Shown one piece after another: positions 1 through 1,770 of a stretch of 64,000 nucleotides of DNA. Source of the stretch: a virus. Its lineage: Duplodnaviria > Caudoviricetes. The stretch is from positions 32,001 to 96,000 of IMG/VR virus record IMGVR_UViG_2509276065_000002; one strand, written 5' to 3'. Below the pieces are notes generated by a model. It did not search any database. It was not told where the DNA came from and saw only the letters and a list, made by a program, of their open reading frames with translations. Within the stretch, counting starts at the first letter, position 1. Each line of letters opens with the position of its first letter. A program made the translations under genes and the position numbers.

Positions 1-200
1 GGAGGGGGCGTCTGGTTGCACAGCGCGTAGGCAGCGTTCTTCCCGACGCGCAGGTAGGCAGCGAGTTCGGGCACCGTAAAGACGGTGTCGTTCTGCAGAT
101 CGCTTTGTGTGGCGGGCAGGGCGAGACGTTCAAGGTGCCGCTCGACGACGCGAGCGACTGCGGTCTGCACCTGTTCAGCGATCAGTTCGTCCAGGCTCAC
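1..200 (-). CDS. Excisionase-like HTH (HTH_17-type) protein, runs off the window start
   Basis: Not in the ORF track. Manual translation from GTG at 200 (GTGA overlap with the stop of the upstream HTH gene): VSLDELIAEQVQTAVARVVERHLERLALPATQSDLQNDTVFTVPELAAYLRVGKNAAYALCNQ...; TVPELAAYLRVGKNAAY is a typical xis-type HTH. Confidence 0.7.
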   Translation of the reverse strand, partial: MSLDELIAEQVQTAVARVVERHLERLALPATQSDLQNDTVFTVPELAAYLRVGKNAAYALCNQTPP

Positions 201-457
201 GCAGGCACCCGTGCCAATTCGTCATTGTTGGTTACGGAGGTCAATAAGTCAGCTGCAGCAATATTTAAGGCAGCAGCGATCTTGTCCAATTGAGCAAGTG
301 TAGGAACTTGCTTGCCGTTCTCTAGAACACTGACCTCACCTTTTCGGCGCGGATCGCCCCAGACACGCTCAGCAAGCTCCTCCTGGTTGAGATTCGCTGC
401 CTGACGATAGCGCCGAATATTCTGTCCAACGACGTTATTTTCGATCAGCTGAGGCAT
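197..457 (-). CDS. Cro-like XRE-family HTH regulator
   Basis: GQNIRRYRQAANLNQEELAERV...VSVLENGKQVPTLAQLDKIAAAL; divergent from the CI-like gene; start could extend to 529. Confidence 0.85.
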   Translation of the reverse strand: MPQLIENNVVGQNIRRYRQAANLNQEELAERVWGDPRRKGEVSVLENGKQVPTLAQLDKIAAALNIAAADLLTSVTNNDELARVPA

Positions 458-464
458 GATCGAA

Positions 465-571
465 TTATGGACCTCCGTAACCAATTTGTAAAGGCCCTCC
501 CACATAAGCATTCTCTTATGGGAAACCATAACTTATGGTGTCTCGTAACTGGAGGTTATGGGACACGCTAA
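465..571. promoter_or_regulatory. Four 16-bp palindromic operators, consensus TTATGG-N4-CCRTAA
   Basis: 465-480 TTATGGACCTCCGTAA; 516-531 TTATGGGAAACCATAA; 533-548 TTATGGTGTCTCGTAA; 556-571 TTATGGGACACGCTAA; located between the divergent repressor genes. Confidence 0.8.
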
Positions 572-1121
572 CCACGCCTCCATCCACCAACCGCTTCTGA
601 TGGGGGTCCTCGCTCGCATGGCAATTAAAGAGAAACCACAGTGGCTGTCCTCTACTGAAGCAGGAGCATTTATCCAGCGCCGCCGCGAGGAGATAGGGCT
701 AACGCAGGAGCAGATGGTCGAGCGGACCGGTATCAAGAATGTCACTTACCTCAGCAGTCTTGAGAATGGTCGCCACCATATCGGTCGCAGTGAGTACTTC
801 GGGATCGTTGCCGAAGTACTGCGTCTGACTGAGGACGAAATGCTGATGCTCAAGCCGAATTTGATTCGTGCGCCGGGCGGCGTCAATGCTTTGAAGGGCT
901 ACAAACATCAAGGAGAGCTTGCAGATCAGCTTCTCCTCGACGACTTGCCACCCGGTCTCGAAGAAGCAATTCGGAAGTACGGCGAGGACTACCCACCGCT
1001 GCGTGACCCCAAGATCCAGCAGCAGCTCGCACTTGCCCGTTTCTACACCGGTCGTGGTCCCCAGAGTGCCAGCCAATGGCTCGCCTACTACCTCTCCATT
1101 GCCAGTTGGATCGGCACCTAA
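558..1121 (+). CDS. CI/ImmR-like XRE-family prophage repressor
   Basis: GAFIQRRREEIGLTQEQMVERTGIKNVTYLSSLENG HTH; helical C-terminal domain with no S24 autopeptidase motif; true start may be ~618. Confidence 0.85.
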   Translation: MGHANHASIHQPLLMGVLARMAIKEKPQWLSSTEAGAFIQRRREEIGLTQEQMVERTGIKNVTYLSSLENGRHHIGRSEYFGIVAEVLRLTEDEMLMLKPNLIRAPGGVNALKGYKHQGELADQLLLDDLPPGLEEAIRKYGEDYPPLRDPKIQQQLALARFYTGRGPQSASQWLAYYLSIASWIGT

Positions 1122-1128
1122 GGCCCCC

Positions 1129-1770
1129 GTGGACGACCTGCCAGCTTCCTACGTCGCGTATGTCGAGAAACTTCACGCCCTCCACGACTACGAACTGAAC
1201 TTCCGGCTGCTCAGCGAATCCCTTGGTGTCCGGATCAAACCCGGACTGGAAAACAGCTTTGTCCCTGGTCCCACGCCCACCATCGTGCTCGAGCCTCACC
1301 TCTACGGCTGGTCCCACTCGCGCGTCGGACTGCACGAACTCGGTCACCTGTTCATCCGCTGGAGTGGCATCGAAGCGCAGCTCCTGAGCGAATGCAGCGA
1401 CAAAAACTACGCCCTGCAAGCCATGGAGAATCTCGCGCACCTCACCGTGGCCGTCCTTCAGATTCCAACACCGCTCCTCGAGGAGGCCCTGCAACGTCAC
1501 GGCGACTCGCCGGCCGCCATTCTCTACATGGCCAAGCGTAGTGGCGCATCCCTTGGCTCGGCCCTCCGGCGCTGGGTGTTCCAGGATGCCCGTGAGCCCC
1601 GCTTCGCTTTCTCAACCGCCGGCAGCTACATCCTCGACACAGCCGCGTTCGGCACATTGATACCGATCTACCGGGGCGCCAGGATTCCCGAGCCTGCGAT
1701 CGAGTTTCCCGAAATCAGCCTGCGCACCTTCAAGCCTGGGCGCAGTGTCGGTGTTTTCGTTGGCAGGTAA
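1129..1770 (+). CDS. ImmA/IrrE-family zinc metallopeptidase (anti-repressor protease)
   Basis: HELGH (HExxH) at 1333-1347, downstream MENLA (third-ligand Glu), then IPTPLLEEALQRHGDSPAAILYMAKRSGASLGSALRR, an IrrE-like HTH segment; GTG start chosen just after the repressor stop. Confidence 0.8.
   Translation: MDDLPASYVAYVEKLHALHDYELNFRLLSESLGVRIKPGLENSFVPGPTPTIVLEPHLYGWSHSRVGLHELGHLFIRWSGIEAQLLSECSDKNYALQAMENLAHLTVAVLQIPTPLLEEALQRHGDSPAAILYMAKRSGASLGSALRRWVFQDAREPRFAFSTAGSYILDTAAFGTLIPIYRGARIPEPAIEFPEISLRTFKPGRSVGVFVGR

Follow-up and report, generated by a model that had tools for sequence, protein, structure and literature searches.

An IrrE/DdrO-like protease and repressor pair in the lysogeny module of a Deinococcus-type prophage

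Which switch governs lysogeny and induction in a prophage that carries no S24-type self-cleaving repressor, and how is this switch related to the radiation-response regulators of its own host? The question is raised by a stretch of 64,000 nucleotides (nt) of tailed-phage DNA (IMG/VR virus record IMGVR_UViG_2509276065_000002, positions 32,001 to 96,000), here called the window, in which a gene for an XRE-type repressor is directly followed by a gene for an HExxH metalloprotease. All positions are those of the window unless stated otherwise, and negative numbers lie to the left of its first letter. The pair belongs to the lysogeny module of an integrated element, prophage A, in which we found no S24-type repressor gene, the only two S24 peptidase genes of the genome lying far away. 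An earlier note, made from the letters of this DNA, had read the pair as a phage-borne relative of the IrrE/DdrO system. We consider it quite probable that the two genes form a protease-driven lysogeny/induction switch in the style of ImmA/ImmR, but of IrrE/DdrO ancestry.

The protease and the repressor

The protease gene is read from GTG 1129, inside a longer frame (919-1770) and 7 nt past the repressor stop, because the resulting N-terminus V/M-D-D-L-P-A is common to the three closest homologues. Its product consists of a peptidase domain (1129-1461), a helix-turn-helix (HTH)-like domain (1462-1584) and a trimmed GAF-like beta domain (1585-1767), the same three parts that make up the fold of IrrE (PprI), and its zinc site is formed by HELGH (1333-1347) with E100 (1426-1428) as the third ligand. 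H69, E70, H73 and E100 are invariant in the aligned members of the protease family (78/78), and the alignment gives the same His-to-Glu spacing as in host IrrE, an HExxH followed by Glu 27 residues after the second His. Pfam Peptidase_M78 (PF06114) scores 14.8 bits on the window protease, under the cut-off of 22, and searches of PHROGs and NCBIfam with it gave no match. Three paralogues in the same genome pass PF06114 with 37, 32 and 29 bits, and the link of the window protease to the M78 family holds by transitivity through these paralogues and by structure.

Among the structures of the PDB, the best sequence matches are IrrE/PprI (8slm, E 0.004; 3dte, E 0.014), and they cover the segment from HExxH to the HTH, exactly the one that the earlier note had quoted as IrrE-like. 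The AlphaFold model is of high quality (predicted local distance difference test score, pLDDT, 96.5; predicted template modelling score 0.91), and Foldseek places PprI/IrrE at ranks 1 to 4 (best E 9e-11, 8sln), with CapP (E 1e-05) and a regulator of M. tuberculosis next. Aligned to IrrE (3dti) with VIA-align, the model reaches Z 17.1 with a root-mean-square deviation of 4.1 Å, and 207 of its 213 residues fall on IrrE residues 11-263; the M. tuberculosis regulator gives Z 13 and CapP Z 11.4. Judged by this model, the protease shares the thermolysin-like peptidase fold of solved M78 members, and the match to IrrE is far beyond a chance HExxH. The overlay also bears out the layout that the note had claimed (peptidase, HTH, then a shortened GAF-like tail), as the open reading frames (ORFs) bear out its repressor without autopeptidase in front of an HExxH protein; Pfam gives HTH domains only, and no S24 autopeptidase, in the XRE proteins at 197-529 and 558-1121.

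The GAF-like domain has about 60 residues in the window protease as against about 120 in IrrE, where it is required for stimulation by single-stranded DNA (ssDNA) and dispensable for zinc-driven activity (PMC10904395, PMC7907104). Since this domain is halved, the inducing trigger may differ from that of IrrE. The ssDNA patch of PprI consists of R85, R207 and R267 (PMC10904395), and the sequence alignment of the window protease around it is too uncertain for scoring. The Arg doublet R147-R148 (1567-1572), with which the HTH-like domain ends, is invariant or nearly so in the prophage protease family and lacking in host IrrE as aligned, and is a candidate for a family-specific contact with substrate or nucleic acid.

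The repressor has an HTH domain (about 651-851), a disordered linker (852-947) and a C-terminal domain of three helices (948-1118); family alignments favour a start at ATG 618 (M-A-I-K..., 167 aa) over 558, with some uncertainty. A PDB search with the single sequence of the window repressor did not find DdrO, and a family profile was needed, which we built from 30 repressors encoded upstream of family proteases. With this profile DdrO provides the three best matches in the PDB (among them 6jq1, E 8e-16, and 6rnx, E 2e-15, over DdrO residues 5-126), and the isolated C-terminal domain of DdrO is matched as well (6ro6, E 3.5e-05). Comparison of the repressor family with DdrO orthologues by hhalign gives a probability of 98.4% and E 4.6e-15 over both domains. 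In the AlphaFold model of the repressor (pLDDT 85) the HTH is joined by about 30 disordered residues to three C-terminal helices, and confidence is lower in a loop at residues 140-150; the top five Foldseek matches of this model are all DdrO, with E-values that are weak because the orientation of the domains is free. All four repressors of the element-borne pairs in the genome share an end that is like that of host DdrO (L-x-x-A, R-F-R-G-x-x-P, D-W-x-x-Y). On sequence grounds the window repressor is a relative of DdrO, including the C-terminal dimerisation domain and a loop that corresponds to the one cut by IrrE. Its linker is about 30 residues longer than that of DdrO.

IrrE cuts DdrO in the loop before the last helix, between L106 and R107 (PMC6868357). 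In the hhalign alignment the repressor loop R-F-Y-T-G-R-G-P stands opposite the DdrO loop I-E-L/R-G-K-R-P, with Y-T facing L106-R107, and because of this alignment the putative scissile bond is predicted to be Tyr143/Thr144 in the 167-aa numbering. The Arg at the cleavage position is needed for cleavage by PprI (R118A, D. geothermalis numbering; PMC10904395). The Leu-Arg-Gly cleavage motif of DdrO (in its loop E-L-R-G) is absent from the window repressor, which has F-Y-T-G at the aligned positions, and within the repressor family the position holds Arg in about 20 of the 30 members and a residue of the aromatic or Gly type in about 10. The replacement of Arg by Thr suggests that the window repressor would not be a good substrate of host IrrE.

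Relatives of the pair in the host family

How widely such pairs occur was addressed with a protease profile built from the window protease, its three closest relatives (57-65% identity) and the three paralogues in the genome. Searched against 1.84 billion representative proteins, it finds 107 at E<1e-10, and genuine IrrE representatives are among the first matches outside the protease family, from 6e-12. Among 364 genomes of the phylum there are full-length matches (E<=1e-20) in 59, of which 57 fall in the family of the host; this corresponds to 57 of the 125 genomes of that family, with up to five copies each. A second class of matches, one per genome at about 1e-15 and restricted to profile positions 41-152, represents the chromosomal IrrE. 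How far the family extends beyond the phylum is judged from the representative-protein library and from the cluster labels of the ESM Atlas, where the neighbours of the window protease belong to clusters of Deinococcota and Uroviricota. No match was obtained when the protease (tblastn) and window positions 1-3950 (blastn) were compared with 50,697 phage records, and the single protease and a four-sequence alignment found no relatives in genome contigs and viral contigs.

The association of the two genes is conserved: of 29 related loci taken from other genomes, 26 have a gene for a DdrO-like repressor immediately upstream of that for the protease. Within the 1.5-kb flanks of the related loci, an integrase or serine recombinase is found in 8 and a divergent Cro-like XRE gene in 5. 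The host genome has its own IrrE (E 2e-80 to 8slm) and its own DdrO, and in addition three more pairs of a DdrO-like repressor and an IrrE-like protease, each beside a serine recombinase or tyrosine integrase and each with different repeats of its own in the upstream DNA; at the third locus, for instance, GTCAACTGA occurs three times. Together with the pair of the window, there are four element-borne pairs and the host IrrE/DdrO, or five such circuits in one cell. The phage genes are adjacent, whereas host irrE and ddrO are unlinked and single-copy. DdrO is 85-95% identical across the host family, in contrast to the highly divergent prophage repressors, which are 18-41% identical to the window repressor.

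The phylogeny was inferred by maximum likelihood with a quick search from 141 rows, leaving out ImmA and Rir, and branch support was taken from the Shimodaira-Hasegawa-like approximate likelihood-ratio test. The window protease falls in a clade of 63 short-tail rows (97% support), and one of the paralogues (C1 1633668-1634471, 267 aa), closer to IrrE in size, falls in a long-tail sister clade. IrrE falls with its Thermales-like relatives in a clade of their own (99%), which groups with other M78 proteins (95%). Because it is placed in a separate clade, the window protease is classified from its sequence as a member of a sister family of IrrE and not as an IrrE orthologue. Of what the earlier note had proposed, the IrrE-type identity stands as far as kinship is concerned and fails as membership in the IrrE clade, in a tree that was drawn without ImmA; its further suggestion that the pair and the host system are related by descent agrees with the fold of the protease and the DdrO profile of the repressor.

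The operators and the prophage around the pair

Four operator-like sites lie between the divergent genes of the module (Table 1). The pattern TTATGGN7TAAC has four matches in the 64-kb window, where 0.00 are expected, and no match elsewhere in the 4.5-Mb genome. The leftmost operator, O1, is overlapped by the -10 element of a promoter-like site of the leftward operon. The half-sites TTATG/CATAA resemble the host's radiation/desiccation response motif (RDRM; published example TTATGCTATTTACATAA, core consensus TATGYYHTTARCRKA; PMC8533742), with a spacer that is one base shorter, so that the phage operators measure 16 bp as against 17 bp; they are also clustered at one locus, whereas the RDRM defines a regulon. 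A strict 17-bp RDRM scan of the switch region found no site of the host type. Upstream repeats of the other three pairs in the genome are quite different from the window operators, and therefore the likeness to the RDRM is special to prophage A and not a trait of the family. We infer that the repressor binds the four 16-bp operators. Together with the Thr at the DdrO Arg position, the 16-bp operators in place of the 17-bp RDRM argue against simple cross-talk with host IrrE/DdrO, as far as the sequence goes.

Table 1. Features of the switch region and its surroundings, in window positions except for the last row
Feature	Position	Strand	Basis or remark
HTH_17 (excisionase/AlpA-like) gene, 123 aa, second of leftward operon	1..200, runs off to -171	-	Pfam HTH_17 9e-09 on full ORF
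Cro-like XRE gene, first of leftward (early lytic) operon	197..529	-	ORF 110 aa; Pfam HTH_3 2e-09; PHROG transcriptional repressor/regulator families
Promoter-like site of leftward operon, TTTACA-17 nt-CATAAT	464..492	-	consensus scan, 10/12 matches; consensus match only
Four operator-like sites, TTATGG-N4-CCRTAA(C)	465-481, 516-532, 533-549, 556-572		repeat finding
DdrO-family XRE repressor	558..1121	+	Pfam HTH_31; ORF 187 aa
Loop between last two helices, R-F-Y-T-G-R-G-P-Q	1038..1064	+	hhalign position of IrrE-cut DdrO loop
IrrE-fold M78 zinc metalloprotease, 213 aa	1129..1770	+	HELGH, profile, model, structural alignment
Abi_alpha (abortive-infection type) gene, cargo of lysogenic operon	1809..2624	+	Pfam Abi_alpha 4e-54
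Tyrosine integrase	2647..3885	+	Pfam Phage_integrase 8e-22, Arm-DNA-bind_4
Attachment (att) site, 56-bp exact copy of tRNA-Arg(CCT) 3' part	3892..3947	-	right end of prophage A = left end of element B
Three extra repressor/protease pairs (loci L009, L010, L011)	C1 2041403-2042613, 516413-517754, 1633222-1634471	-, +, +

The order of the genes is that of a classic immunity region, since a rightward lysogenic operon (repressor, protease, Abi_alpha gene, integrase, then the att copy) stands opposite a divergent leftward operon that begins with the Cro-like gene and the HTH_17 (Xis-like) gene and continues into early and late genes. The Cro-like protein likely starts at ATG 457 (86 aa), although this is uncertain, because the promoter-like site ends 7 nt upstream; the short gap fits the leaderless pattern described for the host phylum (PMC12340547). 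For the integrase the maximal ORF extends from 2527 and the likely start is GTG 2647, with GAGG in front. A homologue of the Abi_alpha gene follows the protease gene in none of the 29 related loci, within their 1.5-kb flanks.

Three copies of the 3' segment of tRNA-Arg(CCT) were located by blastn, at -36009..-35961, at 3892-3947 and in the intact tRNA at 82138-82214, which correspond to C1 positions 1448017-1448065, 1487918-1487973 and 1566164-1566240. An ARAGORN scan of the 64-kb window found no tRNA. Three att copies at a single tRNA indicate that two elements are integrated in tandem, which rules out a reading of the att region as an attP in excised or circular form. The first element, prophage A, is about 40 kb long (-35961 to 3892) and lies for the most part to the left of the window, with its integrase adjoining the att copy; the second, element B, covers about 78 kb between 3947 and about 82127. 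Among the products of prophage A are a replication-initiator O-like protein, a large terminase (2e-94), proteins of the portal, minor tail, tape measure and baseplate hub, and an endolysin; its structural and replication genes share the minus strand and follow the canonical order. It is a real tailed prophage, integrated in tRNA-Arg(CCT) of a Deinococcus-type bacterium, and the phage-borne nature of the pair that the note had assumed is confirmed by its place in the lysogeny module of this att-bounded element.

Other genes of both elements merit a brief record. One product of the early operon of prophage A is a DdrB-like protein of 239 aa (window -2210..-1491; L016:15816-16535, minus strand; Pfam DdrB 7e-43). 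Elsewhere, DdrB is known as a repair protein specific to Deinococcus that binds and anneals ssDNA, and the version in prophage A may serve as a phage recombinase. Midway through the early region there is a third gene of the XRE HTH type, coding for 120 aa (window -5471..-5109; L016:12555-12917, minus strand). Element B contains an ORF of 2900 aa (30872-39574, minus strand) with PhageMin_Tail and NlpC/P60 domains, which resembles an unusually long protein of the tape-measure type, and an ORF of 862 aa (48399-50987, minus strand) with a LAGLIDADG-like domain at residues 601-657, which may be an intein or a homing endonuclease inserted into a phage gene. Also present in element B are two genes for sensor histidine kinases (7835-9382, minus strand; 57961-60750, plus strand), one of them with PAS and GAF domains, either as unusual prophage cargo or as a sign of a composite element. 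Two small ORFs at 4359-4984 (plus strand) have no Pfam match at E<=0.001, and Pfam does not support a DinI-like reading.

A proposed damage-responsive switch and its alternatives

By analogy with IrrE/DdrO, the switch may be pictured as follows. During lysogeny the rightward operon would make the DdrO-family repressor, the IrrE-fold protease, the Abi_alpha protein and the integrase; the repressor would dimerise through its DdrO-type C-terminal domain and sit on the four operators, thereby shutting the leftward early operon from the Cro-like, Xis-like, DdrB-like and replication genes onwards. DNA damage or oxidative stress would then activate the co-encoded protease, through ssDNA, released zinc or both if the case of IrrE is a guide. 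The activated protease would cut the repressor loop that precedes the last helix, probably at or near the predicted bond, and the cut repressor would lose dimerisation and DNA binding, so that the lytic genes would be derepressed. Inactivation of a repressor by an M78 protease has precedents in the cleavage of DdrO by IrrE (PMC6868357) and in ImmA/ImmR (PMC12828697).

As in ImmA/ImmR of ICEBs1, Rir/Crh and MpaR, an M78 protease or anti-repressor is co-transcribed with the repressor of a mobile element next to the integrase, and induction in these systems is likewise independent of self-cleavage of the repressor. The window pair follows the ImmA/ImmR type in that the immunity region of an integrated element encodes both a repressor and an M78 protease next to the integrase. 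ImmA (169 aa) and Rir (122 aa) lack a GAF-like domain and are only distant relatives of IrrE (PMC12828697, PMC7907104). Compared with their descriptions, the window pair is set apart by the extra domains of the protease and by the DdrO-type C-terminal domain of the repressor.

Several points weigh against the proposed switch. Pairwise similarity to the Deinococcus proteins is low for the protease (29% over 94 aa with IrrE) and, for the repressor and DdrO, restricted to the HTH. The residue aligned to DdrO Arg107 is Thr, so that the cut may fall at another site; it is uncertain where the two XRE genes really start; and the C-terminal domain is about half of the GAF-like domain that IrrE needs for ssDNA activation. 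A related phage protein, Rir, moreover acts without detectable cleavage (PMC6868357).

This last point leads to the view that the protease-like protein is a non-proteolytic anti-repressor which, like Rir of Streptococcus phage TP-J34, blocks dimerisation by binding repressor monomers. Rir/Crh is a phage COG2856/XRE pair for which cleavage went undetected (PMC6868357, PMC12828697), and the absence of the Leu-Arg bond of DdrO from the window repressor would suit such a mode of action. We find it improbable, as the catalytic Glu of HExxH and the three zinc ligands never vary among 78 diverse homologues, which is hard to explain without catalysis and argues for real proteolysis rather than Rir-like binding only, and as the fold is much closer to IrrE, a proven protease, than to anything else. 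A different role is offered by CapH/CapP, which control defence operons (10.1101/2022.04.27.489752): the pair would mainly regulate the downstream Abi_alpha defence gene in response to damage and would not be the master switch of the prophage. CapP is a structural relative of the window protease, an M78 protease with an extra C-terminal domain encoded with a small XRE repressor and responsive to DNA damage, and the Abi_alpha gene directly follows the protease gene. The structural match to CapP is nevertheless weaker than that to IrrE, the setting is a prophage immunity region and not a defence operon promoter, and a conserved association with defence operons of the CapH/CapP type is not seen for the window pair. 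While integrases, recombinases and divergent Cro-like genes recur in the related loci, the Abi_alpha neighbour does not, which argues against a dedicated defence regulator; the operators separate the repressor gene from the early lytic operon and are not placed before the Abi_alpha gene, and prophage A yielded no other candidate for a CI-type immunity repressor, although the mid-prophage XRE gene exists. Hence this role, too, has little probability in our judgement.

It has also been predicted that COG2856-XRE pairs are modules of the toxin-antitoxin type (PMC2701414), and one such pair of Brucella has been studied as a toxin-antitoxin-like module (PMC10538038), so that the window pair might be an addiction module with no part in induction. 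We hold this to be very improbable indeed, given that the pair stands in the place of a phage immunity region, accompanied by four operators and an early operon that runs divergently, and that its order is repressor first, then protease, beside an integrase. The ImmA/ImmR-style switch of IrrE/DdrO ancestry is the reading that we carry forward.

The pairs of COG2856 and XRE proteins on mobile elements have been described as distant from IrrE/DdrO and generally without a GAF-like domain (PMC7907104, PMC8072749, PMC12828697), and the literature searched holds no description of a Deinococcus prophage family of IrrE/DdrO-like pairs. The C-terminal domain of DdrO has been described as a new fold without known relatives, and the prophage repressors are the only relatives of this domain found in our analysis. 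A switch made of a protease and an XRE repressor on a mobile element is of a familiar kind; its IrrE/DdrO-like version is previously undescribed and constitutes no new principle. We tentatively suggest, as an idea that may well be wrong, that the chromosomal IrrE/DdrO and the prophage switch family share a specific origin, possibly in a domesticated prophage immunity module, and that the five parallel circuits are apparently insulated by diverged loops and operators.

The family keeps the three-domain fold of IrrE and the dimerisation domain of DdrO, is common in the host family and coexists there with the host IrrE/DdrO. It provides comparative material on the origin of the Deinococcus radiation-response regulators, as well as a natural set of diverged protease and substrate pairs for studies of specificity and insulation. 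It also suggests, in a way open to testing, how prophages of radiation-resistant bacteria could sense damage without a self-cleaving repressor, and, if the five circuits do run in parallel and apart from one another, prophages in these bacteria may read the damage signal of the host repair regulon through private channels.

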